The notes under the pieces were generated by a model that was not told the origin of the DNA, ran no database searches, and worked only from the letters and a program-made list of their open reading frames with translations. Positions 29,290 to 64,000 of a DNA stretch of 64,000 nt are shown here, piece by piece. The stretch spans positions 152,985-216,984 of the forward strand of contig JACKGG010000001.1 in NCBI GenBank assembly GCA_020632035.1. The letters run 5' to 3'. This DNA is from Candidatus Nomurabacteria bacterium. Its GTDB lineage: Bacteria > Patescibacteriota > Minisyncoccia > Phycocordibacterales > UBA918. Position numbers and translations under genes: made by a program. Numbering within the stretch: position 1 is the first letter of the stretch; every line of letters starts with the position of its first letter.

Positions 29290-29494
29290 CCTCCTTCCTT
29301 TGAAATGAGGTATTATTTATACCATATTTAATCTTATTTGCCTAGACTTAACTCGTATCTATCAATATCTACTAGATCTCTTCATAGTTCCGAAGGTCGG
29401 TCCTTCGGAAAGCGAGAGGAGGTCCAACTTCATGAGAGAGTTTCTGTCCCGAGGTCTGACCTCGGGACATGAGGTGCATTCTTCAAGAAGTGGT

Positions 29495-33095: not shown

Positions 33096-33146
33096 AACAG
33101 TAAGCTACCATTATATCGATATTAAAAAAAGCCAGGTCAATCCCTT

Positions 33147-33167
33147 GACCTAGGGTAACCCTAGGTC
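33147..33167. repeat. REP-like palindrome (gacctagggtaaccctaggtc), left flank of Y1 transposase
   Basis: Perfect palindrome; second copy at 33864-33900 and third copy inside murD at 39061-39081. Confidence 0.7.
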
Positions 33168-33849
33168 AGCTTTGGTGACCTTTTAAAATATCGGTATTGT
33201 ATGCTAACCACTCAAACAATTCTTTTTTCATATCTATATGACTAGAAAAATAATCTGGGAATGGAGACGAATCTAAAACGGCTTTTTCTGGTCGATTTAA
33301 TCCTAAATGATCAGGCAAACTTGAATACTGATAAGTCGATACGAATTTATACGCAGTTTCTAAATTCTTTATCCCCCTCTCTACCCAATCTGATTGATAC
33401 AACTTAACAGGATTAAGGTGTATATAGGAATATAAATATTTTAAATATTCATCTTCTCCGGCGTGTTTAGCTTTATAATTTCCTTGGAACAAGGTGCCGG
33501 TACGCTCGTTTCTTTTATTAAAATACATTGAGTAACTTGTACATAATTTATTCATAAAAATACCTAGACCATCATCAGTATGTGGTGTGGCTATAATATG
33601 AAAATGATTAGGCATAAGACAGTATGCGCCGATAGAGACAAGTTGTTCCTTCCTATTAAATTCAAATATATTTTTACCCGACCTAGAAATATTACGATAG
33701 TTTACTGATACTGATGAATTACAAAGATATAAAAGATCAATAAATCTTTTATAATCTGCAGTATCAGTAAAGATAATTCTTCTGTCGGTACCTCTATTAT
33801 AAATATGATAAAACTCGCCAGTTGAAAAACTTATACTCCTGGTTGCCAT
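33166..33849 (-). mobile_element. HUH Y1 tyrosine transposase, IS200/RAYT-like (REP-associated)
   Basis: HuH motif CLMPNHFHIIAT and catalytic Tyr region YSYIHLNP; flanked on both sides by the same palindrome. Confidence 0.6.
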
Positions 33850-33863
33850 TTTTGTATACTAAC

Positions 33864-33900
33864 ACAACCTGACCTAGGGTAACCCTAGGTCAGGTTGTGT
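33864..33900. repeat. REP-like palindrome, right flank of Y1 transposase (extended 18-bp stem)
   Basis: acacaacctgacctagggt-a-accctaggtcaggttgtgt. Confidence 0.7.
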
Positions 33901-33922
33901 TATCTGCCGAAAATTTACAATA

Positions 33923-38438: not shown

Positions 38439-38472
38439 AAAAGGCGCGGTCCAGAGACCGCGCCTTTTTTAT
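38439..38472. terminator. Bidirectional rho-independent terminator between convergent PgeF-like and murD genes
   Basis: aaaaggcgcggtc-cagag-accgcgcctttttt. Confidence 0.7.
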
Positions 38473-39824
38473 TCTTTGATATCAATTTCATTTATACATC
38501 TAACAAACTCGTCGTTTCTCTCATATTCATTTTTGAACATTCCAAATGAGGCGAAACCTGGGCTAAAGAGGAGGACGTCTCCGGGTTGGCCGGAGGCCAA
38601 CCCGGCCGAAACAGCATCAGACAAACTCCCCACCACCTCAGACTCAACCATTTCTTTTAGAACATCTGTACCCGTGCCCTTTAATAAAACAATCTTCTTA
38701 CAGAACTTCTTTGTCTCTTCGGCCAAAGGAGATGGGTCAATATTTTTGTATGCGCCACCGGCAATTAGAATTACATTCTTATCATTAATATTTCCCACAG
38801 CTTGCAAACCTTTTACCGTTGCTTCAGGAATTGTAGAATTATTATCATTATAAATCTTTACCCCATTTTTTTCTCCTAGGTATTCGAGCCGACCAGGTAC
38901 GCCTGGAAAACTAGCCAATCCAGCGAAAATAGACTCTTCATCTAAACTAACTGCCTTCAAGGCTTCGCAAGCAATGGCGGCGTTTAGTCGATTATGTGCT
39001 CCAGGCATGGCCAATAGCGCGTCTTCGGGGATAACTGACTCATCTACCAACTTGACCTCTTGACCTAGGGTTACCCTAGGCAATTGTTTAGCTAGTTCAA
39101 AAACTTCTGGAGTGGTGACGAGGACTCCGCTTTCTTCTTGGTATTCAAATATATTGGCTTTGTCGGCAAAATATAATTTCAAAGCTTCTTCTTTAGTTCT
39201 ACCTCCAGCTTGATAGTAGTTGAGGTGATCTTCCATAAAGTTGGTAAATACAGCAACTTGTGGACTCATCTTTGACCATCCCCAGCCTTGTAACTGCCAA
39301 GAGTCTAACTCCATAACACAGAGTGAATCTTCATTTACTTCATCTAAAAGTTGTAGATTGGAAACACCACGGACATTCCCGCCGAGAAGGACTTTTTCAC
39401 CAGTTACTTCAGTCAAAACATGATGAATCATGTGTGTGACAGTAGACTTCCCCCTAGTACCAGTCACTCCAATAATCGGTACTTTAGAAATTTCGGCAAA
39501 CCAAGCTGCCGATTGTTTGAGTGGCACGCCCGCTTTGCGGGCGTGCTCAAAGACTTCCAAATCCATCGGAGCTCCAGCACCCACCAAGACAAAGTCACAT
39601 TCAGTGAAGTGTTCCTTTTGATATGGACCAAAAGAAAATCTGACATTTGGATAGTCTGCCAATGCATCGACGGATGGTTGCATTACTTCTTCTGAGGCAT
39701 CATCAACCACGTGTACTTCAGCTCCTGCATCAGCTAAAAATTTTGCGTCGCCGACACCTCTACCAAGTAGGCCAATTCTCATTACAGTTATTTTCTTTCC
39801 GTAAAAATATTCTTTAAAATTCAT
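38469..39824 (-). CDS. murD: UDP-N-acetylmuramoylalanine--D-glutamate ligase
   Basis: N-terminal MRIGLLGRGVGDAKFLADAGAEV, IIGVTGTRGKSTVTHMIHHVL P-loop, MPGAHNRLNAAIACEALKA; contains in-frame REP copy (39061-39081) and GC palindrome (39534-39556). Confidence 0.75.
   Translation of the reverse strand: MNFKEYFYGKKITVMRIGLLGRGVGDAKFLADAGAEVHVVDDASEEVMQPSVDALADYPNVRFSFGPYQKEHFTECDFVLVGAGAPMDLEVFEHARKAGVPLKQSAAWFAEISKVPIIGVTGTRGKSTVTHMIHHVLTEVTGEKVLLGGNVRGVSNLQLLDEVNEDSLCVMELDSWQLQGWGWSKMSPQVAVFTNFMEDHLNYYQAGGRTKEEALKLYFADKANIFEYQEESGVLVTTPEVFELAKQLPRVTLGQEVKLVDESVIPEDALLAMPGAHNRLNAAIACEALKAVSLDEESIFAGLASFPGVPGRLEYLGEKNGVKIYNDNNSTIPEATVKGLQAVGNINDKNVILIAGGAYKNIDPSPLAEETKKFCKKIVLLKGTGTDVLKEMVESEVVGSLSDAVSAGLASGQPGDVLLFSPGFASFGMFKNEYERNDEFVRCINEIDIKE
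39061..39081. repeat. REP-like palindrome copy (tgacctagggttaccctaggca) inserted in-frame inside murD
   Basis: Same cctagggt-N-accctagg palindrome as flanks of transposase at 33166-33849; encodes LPRVTLGQE in murD reading frame. Confidence 0.65.
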
Positions 39825-42856: not shown

Positions 42857-43087
42857 TTAAAACTCTACTTCTGTTCGTAAGGGTTTATTCATAATCATAA
42901 CTCACAGCAGACTTGGAGTGTCACGTACTCTTTTGTCTTATCCTTTAGGCTTGGTCTTTCCCAAGAGTCTAATACCATTTCAGAGAATTGAGTATCATTT
43001 CTCGTTATGTGCTCAATTGAGGCACATAACACCGACCAATTAGTTATCATTGTGCTTTGTTACCAAAACACGACAACGTATCCAATT

Positions 43088-44545
<1,458 letters not shown>

Positions 44546-60192: not shown

Positions 60193-61611
60193 CTATTGAA
60201 GTGGCGCAAAATTAGTCTTAGTTTTAGCTATTATGTCTATCTTGGTTGGCCCCACTTCGCAAAGTGAAGAAGTTATTTGGGTATAGATACGGCTTAACTC
60301 AGTCCCGGTCGGAGCGAAGTAGGCGTTGTCAGTGTACGATGCGATATTTCTGATGAACTGTTGATCAACATTATTCCCCAATCCGATGGAATAAATTTCA
60401 ATTCCACTTTCGTTTAGTGATTTGGATAATTCTTCGGCTTCTTTAACTACATCTGCATTTCCGGAAATTGTCGGTAGTCCGTCAGTCAATAGTACTAATA
60501 CTCGCCTGGCATTCTCGTTGTGCCGGTCGGATCCAAGTTCTGCTTGAGCTAATTTAAGAGCATCTACTGTATTGGTGAAGCCAGTTTCTTCGCCTGGATC
60601 GATTTTTAACTTTCTTGTAGTGTCGGCTATTGTATTATGCTGGTTGGTTAAGCCGGTGACTAAGTTTGCTTTAGAATCAAAGGTAACAACAGAAACTTGA
60701 TCATTATTCCGTAAATTATCAATAAATGTGCCGGCTGCTTCAAGGGCTTTGGTGATTGGTTGCGGAGGATTAGATCCATCGTTATTCATACTCCCAGATA
60801 AGTCAATCGCAACTGTAACATCAGTTGGTATGACACAATTCTTGATAGTTTTAGCAATTGGATTCGGCCAGGTAAAGACAATTCCTTCAGTTGACCTCGG
60901 TTCGATGTTGTCTATAAAGGTCTGTGAGGCAGTGACCGGGTCGCCTTTTTCGTTAAAGACTGTGGCCACTACTTCGATGTTATCAGCTGGAAGTAGGGTG
61001 GTGTTCTCTATATCTACATATAATTGAGGCCGACTGTCAGCACTGATCAGGTTGATATCAGTTGAGCGGAACTGGTCTCGGCCGACGGTTGACGGTAGCC
61101 AGAGTTCGGATTGTTCTAATATAACTTTAGTTTCAGTAACCGGCTCTGCGCCATCGACAAATACTCTCCCCTCAAAGATTGGGTAGATACTGTCGGGAGG
61201 AAGCACGGTTTGACCCTCCCTTTCTCCTACCATCTCTCCATTACTAAATAACTGGAAGGTGTAGTTTAGAACTGGAGCGCCAGCCTCTTTATTGGCATTC
61301 TCTACATAAGCAACGACGTTGTATTGACCTTTGGTTATTTCAAAACTTTCTGTCCAGACTACTCTTGGTGGTACTACGTCGGCCTGACAAATCTGAACAC
61401 AACCTCCCCCACAATCAACCCCAGTCTCATCACCATTGGCTGTCCGATCAAAACAATTCGGTGGTACGTAGAAATTAGTAAAAAATATCAAAACACCCAC
61501 TACTCCAAGTGACAGAAAAAGCCCAACTAGGTATTGAACACGTCGCCAAATTGCCCACGGACGAATAAAGCTCATGTAATTATTGTACCAGATTGAGTCA
61601 CCAAAATTCAT
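60193..61611 (-). CDS. Membrane-anchored von Willebrand factor type A (vWA) domain protein
   Basis: N-terminal TM; MIDAS motif VAIDLSGSMNNDGS... VLLTDGLPT. Confidence 0.65.
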   Translation of the reverse strand: MNFGDSIWYNNYMSFIRPWAIWRRVQYLVGLFLSLGVVGVLIFFTNFYVPPNCFDRTANGDETGVDCGGGCVQICQADVVPPRVVWTESFEITKGQYNVVAYVENANKEAGAPVLNYTFQLFSNGEMVGEREGQTVLPPDSIYPIFEGRVFVDGAEPVTETKVILEQSELWLPSTVGRDQFRSTDINLISADSRPQLYVDIENTTLLPADNIEVVATVFNEKGDPVTASQTFIDNIEPRSTEGIVFTWPNPIAKTIKNCVIPTDVTVAIDLSGSMNNDGSNPPQPITKALEAAGTFIDNLRNNDQVSVVTFDSKANLVTGLTNQHNTIADTTRKLKIDPGEETGFTNTVDALKLAQAELGSDRHNENARRVLVLLTDGLPTISGNADVVKEAEELSKSLNESGIEIYSIGLGNNVDQQFIRNIASYTDNAYFAPTGTELSRIYTQITSSLCEVGPTKIDIIAKTKTNFAPLQ

Positions 61612-61661
61612 CCAGGTTTTAACTTCTATTGTTCAACAAATAATTTATAAATACCCCCTAT

Positions 61662-61684
61662 TGTCCAGCACCGAGTGCTGGACA
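61662..61684. repeat. REP-like palindrome 2 (tgtccagcaccgagtgctggaca), left flank of second Y1 transposase
   Basis: Identical 23-mer also at 62393-62415. Confidence 0.7.
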
Positions 61685-61714
61685 GATTGTTTGGTAATAG
61701 TTAAAAACCACATT

Positions 61715-62386
61715 CTATATCTCAAAATCTTCTTTTGCGCCTGAATTTTCAACAAACTCCTGGTATTCTTCAAAAGACCCAAAAGTGCTAGTAATAACCT
61801 CCCCTACTAACAATTTTTTCCATCTGTTGCTGAGATAATCTTGGTAACTAGACCACGGATAAGAAATTGTATTATTTTTCCACCGTCTCAGTTCATTAGG
61901 ATTGCGATGTATATACGCTGACAGATAGGTCAATTGTTCATCACTTTCCACTAACTTTACTTTATAAGCACCTTGAAACACATGTCCTGACTTCTCATAC
62001 CGCTTATTGAAATATTGGGAATAGGCGTTGCTTAGTTTATGCATATACCTAGACAAGCCATCATCACTTAAAGTCCTCACTGTTAAATGAAAGTGGTTTG
62101 GCATTATGCAAAAATTTATTATCTCGACAAACCTCTCACTTACAATATTATCTAGATCTTTATTTTTAACCAAAAAGTCCTCTTTCTTTAGGTAATTTTT
62201 AACAAAACGATTTGTTTGAGGTAGGGAAACGGGAGACTGCATATGCATAGCAAGGAATAGAAAACGAACATAATCAGAACGGTCATAAAAAAGCGTCTGC
62301 TTTAAATTTCCTCTATTGTATACGTGGTAATAATTATCCTCAATAATTTTCAAAGATCTCATATCAACAGCATACCAGTATAGCAA
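61715..62386 (-). mobile_element. HUH Y1 tyrosine transposase, IS200/RAYT-like (paralog of 33166-33849)
   Basis: HuH motif CIMPNHFHLTVRT, Tyr region SAYIHRNP; YYHVYNRGN N-terminus like the other copy; flanked by identical 23-bp palindromes. Confidence 0.6.
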
Positions 62387-62392
62387 ACACAG

Positions 62393-62415
62393 TGTCCAGC
62401 ACCGAGTGCTGGACA
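62393..62415. repeat. REP-like palindrome 2, right flank
   Basis: tgtccagcaccgagtgctggaca. Confidence 0.7.
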
Positions 62416-62583
62416 GTACGGGTGCTTCTTACAGAAGATGTGCACCTTTTGGATAGTTTGGTTCACTAGTTCCTAAAATATTTCAAAAGGTCTTGCGCGA
62501 CATTATTTGATTTATCAAATAAGAAGTGCCCTTGTGGTGAAAATCTCCCAGACTCCCTTACCCCTTACCCCTTACCCCAAAGT

Positions 62584-62611
62584 AAAAAACCACTCGAAAT
62601 GAGTGGTTTTT
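62584..62611. terminator. Bidirectional rho-independent terminator downstream of 5S rRNA cluster
   Basis: aaaaaccactc-gaaa-tgagtggttttt. Confidence 0.65.
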
Positions 62612-62633
62612 ATATGGAGTATTTAAAAGCTCT

Positions 62634-62791
62634 AAGTTGGCGCCTACCTACTCTTCCCCTTGCGGAGTACCATCGGTGGTAGAAGACTTTGGCTTTCAAA
62701 CGAGCGAGAGAAACGAAAGTGGACCGCAGTCAATTTTCATTTACGAGCAAGTAAAAAAGTGACCGTGCCGTGTTCGGAATGAGAACGGGTG
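62634..62791 (-). pseudogene. Interrupted/variant 5S rRNA copy (3' half + about 75-nt insertion + 5S core motif, divergent 5' end)
   Basis: Shares aagttggcgcctacctactcttccccttgcggagtaccatcggtggtagaagacttt with the intact 5S, then unrelated insert, then ccgtgttcggaatgagaacgggtg. Confidence 0.5.
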
Positions 62792-62916
62792 AGCTAGTCT
62801 GGGAGACTAGCGCAAGACTCGCCCAGCAATTTTGTGAGTTTCGAGACAAAATAGCGAGCGAGTGGACAGCCGCTGTAAGAGGGACCCCTTTCGCAAATCA
62901 CCCAAAGCAAAACAAA

Positions 62917-62938
62917 AAGTCACCTTGCGGTGACTTTT
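62917..62938. terminator. Rho-independent terminator hairpin between 5S copies
   Basis: aaagtcacc-ttgc-ggtgacttt with flanking A/T runs. Confidence 0.5.
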
Positions 62939-62957
62939 CAGGAGAATTAAATGCTTA

Positions 62958-63032
62958 AAGTTGGCGCCTACCTACTCTTCCCCTTGCGGAGTACCATCGG
63001 TGGTAGAAGACTTTACTGCCGTGTTCGGAATG
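62958..63032 (-). pseudogene. Truncated 5S rRNA copy (3' about 75 nt)
   Basis: Identical to 3' two-thirds of intact 5S through ccgtgttcggaatg, then diverges. Confidence 0.55.
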
Positions 63033-63121
63033 CTCAATGTTTGTTCAAGAGCTTGCGATTGAACACAAACATTAGTCCTTTAGGGCGAACGGTCTAAAAG
63101 TTTTTAAAAATCAAGCTCTTC

Positions 63122-63233
63122 AAGTTGGCGCCTACCTACTCTTCCCCTTGCGGAGTACCATCGGTGGTAGAAGACTTTACTGCCGTGTTCGGAATGAGAA
63201 CGGGTGTACCCCTTCCCCCAAAGCACCAACTTG
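63122..63233 (-). rRNA. rrf: 5S ribosomal RNA
   Basis: Minus strand AAGTTGGTGC...CACCCGTTCTCATTCCGAACACGGCAG...GATGGTACTCC...GAGTAGGTAGGCGCCAACTT; helix I pairing of ends; matches bacterial 5S consensus (CCGAACACGG, GATGGTA). Confidence 0.8.
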
Positions 63234-63415
63234 AAAGGCTCGATTTTGATTTTAAAAAACTTTTAGTTGTGTACCCTTGAAATTGTCTCCCAGACAATTT
63301 CAATCCCTCAGCACCAACTTTAAGAATTTAATTCGTTATTTAACTTGCTTCAATCGCGTGAAATGGTGATATGTTGTCGTGAGTCCTTATACTCTGATTA
63401 GTAACATCTCGTAAA

Positions 63416-63524
63416 TGGTAGGGGTAGCAGGAATTGAACCCACCGCCTTTGCTTGATCGCACTCGTAGCGAGCTCAGGCCCTTCGCGAGAACCAGTATTC
63501 TTTGTCCATCCAAGTGGTACCCCT
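63416..63524 (-). ncRNA. tRNA-like structured element (acceptor-like stem + T-arm-like GGTTCAATTCC + encoded CCA) in 23S-5S spacer, flanked by 17-bp inverted repeats
   Basis: Minus strand AGGGGTA...GTGGGTTCAATTCCTGCTACCCCTACCA; inverted repeats caatcgcgtgaaatggt at 63351-63368 and 63562-63578; could not be folded into a canonical cloverleaf. Confidence 0.25.
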
Positions 63525-63789
63525 TGAATAAACTACTGACACTCTATACCCCCGTGAAATTACCATTTCACGCGATTGAAAATTCACATATTCAAGAGAC
63601 TCTTCGAACTCGACCTTTCAGCCGAGCATTAGGTAACACTTCACTCATCAAATTACACAGTTCAAAATCTTACAAATTGCCTGCATTTCTAGGCGCGCCA
63701 GAAAGATTTTTGGAACGGGGCTTGTGCCCAGTGACAAAAATCTTTTGCCAGCGCAACACCGAAATGCTGCAATTTTAAGGTTTTGATGT

Positions 63790-64000
<211 letters not shown>

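Follow-up and report, generated by a model that had tools for sequence, protein, structure and literature searches.

A candidate REPtron-like unit, a Y1 nuclease gene between two identical hairpins, beside the 5S rRNA genes of a Candidatus Nomurabacteria genome

Introduction

In the published classification of TnpA-Y1 proteins, class 2, on the TnpA-REP side, carries the tyrosine signature Y---NP, and TnpA-IS200 carries Y---Q (PMC6006769). REP-associated tyrosine transposases (RAYTs) are paired with repetitive extragenic palindromes (REPs); one RAYT per REP family, with several such pairs in a genome, has already been documented, and in subclass 2.6 and class 3 hairpins are known that have no tetranucleotide GT[AG]G (PMC6006769). 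Subclass 2.1, which equals group 1 of Bertels, was reported without flanking REP-like structures (PMC6006769). What RAYTs do and how REPs spread are open questions that have been studied almost only in Proteobacteria. Patescibacteria are absent from the taxa named for any TnpA-Y1 subclass in the survey of complete genomes (PMC6006769), and a literature search found no paper on RAYT/REP systems in bacteria of the candidate phyla radiation. Here, we describe a Y1 gene of Candidatus Nomurabacteria, called Y1b, that lies between two identical hairpins directly after the 5S rRNA genes. It was found in a 64,000-nt stretch of contig JACKGG010000001.1 (assembly GCA_020632035.1, positions 152,985 to 216,984 of the forward strand), referred to below as the window; positions are counted from its first nucleotide.

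The gene and its hairpins are read here as a REPtron-like unit, with a probability of roughly 0.6. In such a unit, a resident class 2 Y1 protein would recognize the hairpins in single-stranded DNA (ssDNA), would occasionally copy or homogenize them, and would control its own promoter. The protein family is very large in Patescibacteria, with over 6,500 members at E ≤ 1e-30, in genomes of ~1 Mb that are under strong streamlining.

Results

A Y1 gene between two identical hairpins

The 23-mer TGTCCAGCACCGAGTGCTGGACA was found exactly twice in the window, both times on the plus strand with the same CGA loop, so that the two copies form direct repeats (Table 1). The number of matches expected by chance was 0, even with three mismatches allowed, and no isolated 9- or 10-nt arm of the 23-mer was found elsewhere within the 64 kb. 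Folded as ssDNA, each copy forms a stem of 10 bp closed by a 3-nt loop, with a free energy of approximately −10.7 kcal/mol; the fold z-scores of the two were −4.0 and −7.5, and both hairpins received a terminator-like score. The open reading frame (ORF) of Y1b between them was first called at 61715 to 62386 on the minus strand, with a TTG start and a length of 223 amino acids (aa). The alignment of homologs and the 215-aa GenBank protein MCB9815146.1 agree in pointing to the ATG at 62362 as the most likely true start, for a product of 215 aa (MRSLKI...). With this start, the distance from either hairpin to the coding sequence is exactly 30 nt. The complete hairpin-Y1b-hairpin unit measures 754 bp.

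A chance or artifactual origin of the unit was rejected, with 0 matches expected and the same strain present at 99.96 to 100% identity in independent metagenome contigs. Samples SRR12358675/6 and ERZ28655710 contain this strain. No known RNA family was found by Rfam over the region of the unit. A phage or defense origin was likewise discarded, with no PHROGs or PADLOC match.

Y1b carries the class 2 tyrosine motif

Pfam matched Y1b to Y1_Tnp (E = 1.5e-12) and to no other family, and no C-terminal DnaA_C/HTH domain was detected in that scan. In an alignment of 122 sequences, His91 and His93 of the HUH motif (H91-F-H93), Tyr151, His153, and Asn155 were invariant, and Pro156 was conserved in at least 90%. 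The motifs of Y1b in the alignment numbering are PNHFH, FQG, YIHRNP (containing Tyr151), and a WSSY tail; those of Y1a, a paralogous protein encoded at 33 kb in the window, are NHFH, FQG, YIHLNP, and YSS. Because of the Y---NP tyrosine motif, both proteins are placed by sequence in class 2, on the TnpA-REP side and not with IS200. The combination of NHFH, FQG, YIH(R/L)NP, and an SS tail matches the second motif set of subclass 2.1, in a comparison made by eye against the published motifs (Quentin et al. 2018).

An AlphaFold model of Y1b was built from the same 122 sequences (pLDDT, 94.9; pTM, 0.91) and searched with Foldseek. The top match in the Protein Data Bank (PDB) was 4ER8, with an E value of 5e-5 and a target-normalized TM score of 0.64. 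This entry is the E. coli TnpA-REP, a RAYT, bound to a REP hairpin. The TnpA proteins of ISDra2 and IS608 ranked behind it in the fold search and were also significant. The sequence-profile search gave weak, nondiscriminating values (1e-3 for ISDra2 [2XM3] and 2e-3 for 4ER8), and a single-sequence PDB search with Y1b returned nothing relevant.

Long residence after the 5S rRNA gene

Five orthologous lineages were examined, with identities to Y1b of 73% (P0001), 71% (P0002), 63% (P0018), 62% (P0008), and 60% (P0020). In 5/5 of them (loci L021, L107, L110, L112, and L119), a 5S rRNA gene on the same strand lies directly upstream, followed by a terminator-like hairpin, a hairpin, the Y1 gene, and a further hairpin. 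An aminotransferase gene stands downstream of the Y1 unit in all five loci, directly or one gene further on. The first-pass annotation of the window had described Y1b as inserted beside the 5S cluster. Since the position after 5S is conserved across the five lineages at 60 to 73% aa identity, it is judged from these comparisons to be ancestral, with no recent insertion, and that description was therefore abandoned.

Neither P0001 nor P0018 (eight contigs each) showed a second context, and none was seen for P0002 or P0008. Among the ortholog proteins looked up, the sole second context was a contig encoding P0020 (L111). The Y1 unit is identical in L110 and L111 (100% over 1,625 nt), and the left flanks diverge ~4 nt outside the extended hairpin; L111 is ambiguous, as it may be a genuine second context or a short-read contig wrongly joined across the repeat. 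A more distant homolog (P0031, 56% identity) was located in another context.

Matching hairpins across the family and paired changes in the stem

The layout was examined across the family in a set consisting of 80 metagenomic loci with relatives of 32 to 49% identity and the loci of closer homologs. Ninety loci offered a complete gene with enough flank and were scored for a locus-specific perfect palindrome (stem of ≥7 bp) on both sides of the gene. As controls, 363 other ORFs of ≥150 aa from the same sequences were put through the same test. Matching perfect hairpins on both sides were found at 38/90 of the Patescibacteria Y1 loci versus 5/363 of the control ORFs. The upstream hairpin usually stands 10 to 45 nt before the start, and the downstream hairpin stands at most ~30 nt after the stop codon, sometimes overlapping it. 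The hairpin sequence itself is almost wholly different from locus to locus. With regard to loop orientation, the two copies were direct at 18 of the 38 loci, inverted at 14, and unclear at 6, so that a direct arrangement such as that of the window has no diagnostic value.

In a set of 17 hairpins, each 23 nt long, 99.4% of cells were paired, and 8 of the 10 pairs changed on both sides. The observed covariation score was reached by 0/500 shuffles, and no slid register came close, with the caveat that the sequences picked were already palindromic. Codivergence of protein and hairpin was visible only inside the Y1b clade (TGTCCAGCAC, TGTCCAACAC, TGGCTAACAC, TGGTCAACAC, and TGTTCAACAC). In the syntenic part of this clade, the foot TGTCC/GGACA was kept except in L119 (TGGCT), and the inner stem changed in compensatory pairs. 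Its 5' and 3' arms read AGCAC/GTGCT in the window and L021, AAAGC/GCTTT in L112, and AACAC/GTGTT in L110; in L107, they read AACGC/GCGTT in the upstream hairpin and TAAGC/GCTTA in the downstream one.

One hairpin arm was often repeated immediately alongside the hairpin, as in hairpin-AAA-GTGCTGGACA. Such repeats were seen in L001, L007, L009, L017, L019, L119 (downstream hairpin), and L041, with both arms doubled in the last of these. These duplications may have been left behind when hairpins were processed or when slippage occurred there.

Dispersed and solo hairpins in relatives

One genome per species, taken from the GTDB representatives (596 Gb), was scanned for the exact stem with any loop, and 20 loci were recovered. 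The genome that carries Y1b is not part of this set. Three were inside ORFs of high-GC Actinobacteria, which is about the chance level for 20 specified bases, and the remaining 17 belonged to three Patescibacteria metagenome-assembled genomes (MAGs). Stem copies numbered 10 (on 9 contigs) in KR13_N2.mb.36, 6 in UBA3527, and 2 in GL28_UP_metabat_94. Nearly all of the dispersed stems were intergenic, and a Y1 gene was adjacent only in L012, a KR13 locus.

In KR13, six copies terminate a repeat of ~100 nt. The left boundary of this repeat is sharp and coincides with the flank on the 3' side of the L012 Y1 gene, and the element, observed at L012 and the KR13 loci L003, L004, L007, L014, and L020, has the form TGAAGCTATCAT...GCAAGTGGATAACTCAAAA-second hairpin-AAAACGnACA-hairpin. 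The GL28 MAG encodes P0020; the gene-flanking hairpins there are of the AACAC variant, and the solo copies are of the AGCAC variant.

At the orthologous site of UBA3527, a gene for an ortholog (48% aa identity) of the VWA-domain protein encoded next to the unit in the window, a single hairpin, 5S, a tRNA-like gene, and 23S were found. No Y1 remnant was found beside the solo hairpin. The 20-nt stem is identical in the window and UBA3527, although the 5S genes are only 77% identical. The absence of the gene could reflect deletion between 23-bp repeats or, alternatively, arrival of the gene at a hairpin that was already present. As the solo copy has the opposite orientation to the window copies, the history of the site is not simple.

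A putative promoter inside the hairpin

A consensus scan detected a promoter-like site ahead of Y1b (Table 1). Its −35 hexamer TGGACA (62398 to 62393) is formed by the final six bases of the upstream hairpin in gene sense, and the −10-like box TGgTATGCT terminates 6 nt ahead of the ATG. The same geometry was found in six more lineages (L021, L107, L110, L112, L119, and L121), where the 3' arm contributes a −35-like hexamer and is followed by a spacer of 16 to 18 nt, a TAnnnT box, and 6 to 8 nt to the start. From this geometry, a leaderless Y1b mRNA would be predicted. The putative promoter would overlap the presumed binding site of the enzyme, which would provide an obvious route to autoregulation. 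Because the hairpin is palindromic, every copy has outward-facing −35-like boxes on both strands. At the downstream hairpin, the scan paired an outward TGGACA with AATTAT in a promoter-like site facing the VWA-domain gene.

The paralog Y1a and other palindromes

The first-pass annotation had proposed that the two Y1 genes of the window are paralogs, each with its own palindrome. Pairwise alignment of Y1a and Y1b gave 38% identity over 201 aa (E = 1e-36), and the palindrome of Y1a, TGACCTAGGGTAACCCTAGGTCA (palindrome 1), has the same architecture as the Y1b hairpin and a different sequence, so that both parts of the proposal held. The identical 23-mers on both sides of Y1b were likewise confirmed as exact copies, and the assignment to a RAYT-like type agreed with the Y---NP motif, with 4ER8 as the best structure, and with the hairpin-gene-hairpin layout. 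The protein motifs quoted for both genes are present in the Y1b ORF, while the Y1a versions are similar but not identical. The suggestion of an actively diversifying system did not survive the comparison with other genomes. The nearest relatives elsewhere are 60 to 73% identical for Y1b and 60 to 68% identical for Y1a, versus 38% between the two. Because each has closer relatives in other genomes than in the other, Y1a and Y1b are, by sequence identity, long-separated old lineages with no recent split in this genome.

A 65% homolog of Y1a was found in a different context, with the inner core CCTAGGG-TTA-CCCTAGG of the hairpin kept and the foot different. A near-copy of palindrome 1 lies inside murD and shares 20 contiguous bases with the Y1a hairpin (CCTAGGGTAACCCTAGGTCA, coding for PRVTLGQ). 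An in-frame REP insertion was considered and rejected, as MurD homologs have a conserved segment of the same length; a murD gene with 76% identity at the DNA level (L115) carries the same palindrome. Since the probability of the 20-nt match arising by chance is ~5e-7, some link between the murD palindrome and the Y1a hairpin, in either direction, exists. A third type of palindrome, solo and intergenic, combines the foot of the Y1b hairpin with a different stem, and a second small hairpin stands just upstream of it (~29389 to 29408).

TABLE 1 Positions of the hairpin-Y1b-hairpin unit and of other features of the window
Feature	Position	Strand	Remarks
Upstream (5') hairpin of Y1b	62393-62415	-	Gene sense TGTCCAGCAC-TCG-GTGCTGGACA; exact 23-mer, DNA fold
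Y1b	61715-62362	-	215-aa HUH/Y1 ssDNA nuclease/transposase gene, RAYT-like (activity predicted)
Downstream (3') hairpin of Y1b	61662-61684	-	Identical to the upstream hairpin; 30 nt past the stop codon
Promoter-like site	62369-62398	-	−35 TGGACA, 18-nt spacer, extended −10 TGgTATGCT; consensus scan
Y1a	33166-33849	-	227 aa; paralog of Y1b (38% identity)
Palindrome 1, downstream of Y1a	33146-33168		TGACCTAGGGTAACCCTAGGTCA; overlaps the stop codon
Palindrome 1, upstream of Y1a	33860-33902		20-bp extended stem; core at 33870-33892
Near-copy of palindrome 1 in murD	39061-39083	-	In frame, codes for LPRVTLGQ; murD at 38469-39824, minus strand
Intergenic solo palindrome, third type	29445-29469		TGTCCCGAGGTC-T-GACCTCGGGACA; TGTCC...GGACA foot
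VWA-domain gene	60193-61611	-	472 aa
Spacer heptamers	~62555-62579		Three tandem repeats of CCCTTAC type
Terminator-like hairpin	~62586-62612		Between the 5S fragments and the Y1b unit
5S cluster	62637-63230	-	One intact 5S and two derivatives
5S copy A	62637 to ~62915	-	5S derivative
5S copy B	62964-63036	-	5S derivative
Intact 5S	63123-63230	-	
tRNA-like gene	~63345-63575	-	In the 23S-5S spacer
23S, 3' end	63800-64000	-	
16S	43085-44544		19 kb from 23S/5S

Surroundings of the unit

On the minus strand, the 3' end of 23S is followed by the tRNA-like gene, the intact 5S, two 5S-derived fragments, and the terminator-like hairpin, and then by the upstream hairpin, Y1b, the downstream hairpin, and the VWA-domain gene. 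The heptamers are located in the spacer that separates the terminator-like hairpin from the Y1b unit. In relatives (L021, 2788 to 8170), the aminotransferase gene and a gene of ~1,285 to 1,400 aa stand between the downstream hairpin and the VWA-domain gene. Both of these genes are missing from the window (61612 to 61661) and from the UBA3527 locus, a lineage-specific indel that abuts the hairpin.

Of the two 5S derivatives, copy B is the 3' 73 nt of 5S. In copy A, all 5S segments are 100% identical to 5S, with inserts of ~90 and 73 nt and a divergent 5' end; the inserts showed no similarity to any fetched sequence. Six relatives have a single 5S, located only 70 to 80 nt from the hairpin. The tRNA-like gene, which is also present in L011, L021, and L110, has acceptor, D, and T arms, a CCA end, and an internal insert of ~60 nt. 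An inverted repeat of 18 nt (TCAATCGCGTGAAATGGT/ACCATTTCACGCGATTGA) encloses this gene and resembles a processing stem. ARAGORN reported nothing for this gene in the window and "tRNA-???" in L110. A LAGLIDADG ORF lies beside the 23S 3' region in L011 and L021, which suggests a 23S intron in these relatives. The 16S gene is distant from 23S and 5S, so that the rRNA genes are unlinked.

Discussion

A resident Y1 gene with probable cognate hairpins

The locus is best filed as an extension of the REP/RAYT kind to Patescibacteria, a phylum in which it was previously undescribed, and to a subclass of which the same is true. The hairpins of Y1b are atypical in being perfect, close to the gene, low in copy number, and equipped with a putative promoter, and the enzyme gene has probably been domesticated. 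By analogy with TnpA-REP of E. coli, Y1b would bind the hairpin when it is extruded in ssDNA. Cleavage and rejoining beside the hairpin, extrapolated from the same system, would lead to low-frequency seeding and homogenizing of copies in these small genomes. Because the 3' arm of the upstream hairpin would double as a −35 box, extrusion or enzyme binding could feed back on the expression of Y1b. The Y1a unit at 33 kb would represent an independent old lineage with a hairpin specificity of its own.

Several observations weigh against a REPtron-like unit. The Y1b hairpin is without the canonical REP guide tetranucleotide GT[AG]G, having the foot TGTCC...GGACA instead; its two copies are direct, not inverted; and the window holds no solo copies of TGTCCAGCACCGAGTGCTGGACA. 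The copy numbers in relatives (2 to 10) are far under those of classical REPs. Quentin et al. reported no REPs for subclass 2.1 (PMC6006769). With the NCBIfam equivalog model for RAYT, REP_Tyr_transpos (NF047646), Y1b scored 40.4 bits, below the cutoff of 80, and is thus, by sequence, related to the proteobacterial RAYT but not an equivalog of it. The covariation alone is no proof of a hairpin, as a dimer reading double-stranded DNA would also yield symmetric changes in a palindrome. Across the family, the correlation between protein and stem was not significant (rho = 0.07, p ~0.1; Mantel-type test at 37 loci, with the inner 7 bases of the stem). Finally, in KR13 (L012), the same 20-nt stem flanks a Y1 protein only 34% identical to Y1b, and a simple rule of one protein, one hairpin therefore fails.

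Alternative explanations

The palindromes might be purely regulatory, serving as promoter, operator, or terminator of a fully domesticated gene, with nothing mobile in this genome. Under this explanation, the Y1 protein may bind the palindromes, either as ssDNA or as a dimer on double-stranded DNA, and so control its own transcription or that of its neighbors. Such a role would suit the −35 in the 3' arm, the −10, and the 6 to 8 nt to the start, which are conserved in all seven lineages of the clade, as well as the downstream copy, promoter-like toward the VWA-domain gene, and the terminator-like character of both copies. Stable synteny and the lack of solo copies in the window point the same way. 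It fits poorly with the HUH motif and the tyrosine, whose invariance in 122 homologs argues for retained nuclease chemistry. Nor would it account for a stem that recurs in three MAGs at many intergenic positions unrelated to one another, for the ~100-nt KR13 repeat with its sharp ends, or for a 20-nt stem that is identical between genomes in which the flanking VWA protein is only 48% identical. Taken as a whole, this explanation appears unlikely.

A hairpin-bounded cassette was considered as well, in which the Y1 gene together with one hairpin would enter and leave solo hairpins by Y1-catalyzed exchange of ssDNA, by analogy with the attC logic of integrons. The same 5S-VWA site holds hairpin-Y1-hairpin in the window and L021 and a solo hairpin in UBA3527, but deletion between the 23-bp direct repeats explains this polymorphism equally well, and the UBA3527 solo hairpin has the opposite orientation to the window copies. 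The identical unit of L110 and L111, with two left flanks that break ~4 nt beyond the hairpin, would favor a cassette, but the short-read contig L111 may have been mis-joined through the repeat. Lineage-specific gene indels exactly at the downstream hairpin and half-arm duplications beside hairpins are in its favor; against it, all five orthologs of ≥60% identity examined were at the 5S site. A cassette of this kind is considered improbable. Much the same low probability is given to a broader proposal, that the hairpins are recombination-competent boundaries of modules, between which the Y1 protein would exchange DNA, with the outward −35 boxes as mobile promoter parts. If true, hairpin exchange would explain the gain and loss of cassettes, the half-arm duplications, the gene indels, and possibly the segmental duplications of 5S.

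The least probable explanation is an autonomous minimal IS200-like insertion sequence (IS), a recently inserted element of 754 bp with the hairpins as its left and right subterminal ends: a Y1_Tnp gene between two same-orientation hairpins, as in IS200/IS608, a size of ~0.75 kb, and significant fold and profile matches to the TnpA of ISDra2 and IS608 would agree with it, but five orthologous lineages at 60 to 73% identity keep the position after 5S, the window has no second copy and a paralog that is just 38% identical, the lone second context for orthologs (L111) may be a mis-join, the protein has Y---NP rather than Y---Q and 215 rather than ~150 aa with no tnpB, and relatives carry gene-less solo hairpins, whereas precise excision of the IS608 type would leave none at the UBA3527 site.

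Significance

As a REPtron-like unit, the locus would offer a compact model for hairpin recognition, autoregulation, and REP seeding, with perfect hairpins close to the gene, few copies, and a built-in putative promoter. The low copy number allows single events to be traced, and gene-present and solo-hairpin alleles occur naturally at one site. The unit would further provide an example of cognate hairpins in a subclass that was reported to be REP-less. In genome annotation, Y1 genes of this kind should not be taken as signs of recent transposition.

Comparison with known systems

Of the subclasses of TnpA-Y1, subclass 2.1 shares with Y1b and Y1a the motifs NH[YF]H, FQ, Y[IV]HLNP, and the SS tail, a length of ~215 to 238 aa, and a low copy number with divergent paralogs. 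It differs in having been reported without REP-like flanks, whereas hairpins are the rule here; the TIRYTs, within subclass 2.1, have inverted repeats of GGGG[AT][CG]A[CG]. The C-terminal DnaA_C/HTH-like domain of subclass 2.1 was not detected by Pfam in Y1b. Subclass 2.6 and class 3, from Bacteroidetes, Planctomycetes, and Acidobacteria, have flanking hairpins without GT[AG]G, as does Y1b, and copies elsewhere in the genome, as seen for the same stem in three other Patescibacteria MAGs. However, the motifs WQ and YIH[QN]NP of subclass 2.6 and Y----Q of class 3 are both unlike those of Y1b, and the structures of these groups were described as weaker, in contrast to the perfect stems found here.

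IS200, IS608, and ISDra2 (subclass 1.1) have in common with the present unit the Y1 HUH fold, same-orientation subterminal hairpins, and a length of ~0.7 kb. The features of IS200/IS605 TnpA that were not seen here are Y---Q, a core of ~150 aa, multiple near-identical copies, and a nearby tnpB. The REPIN/RAYT systems of Pseudomonas (Bertels and Rainey) resemble the window in having one RAYT per repeat family, coexisting pairs, single-copy genes, and vertical inheritance. Their REPINs are inverted REP doublets in tens to hundreds of copies, whereas solo hairpins, or the one-hairpin ~100-nt element of KR13, were found here in 2 to 10 copies.

The REPtron of E. coli, with its TnpA-REP (RayT/YafM), shares with Y1b the HUH/Y1 fold, the single tyrosine in Y---NP, a gene placed between cognate hairpins, a low gene copy number, and apparently vertical inheritance. 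Y1b is 50 aa longer than this protein, with additional helices in the model between β1 and the HUH strand. In contrast to the E. coli REPtron, the hairpins of Y1b have perfect 10-bp stems, 3-nt loops, and a TGTCC foot and are without a GTAG guide, the flanking copies are direct and stand 30 nt from the gene, and copies number tens at most rather than hundreds.

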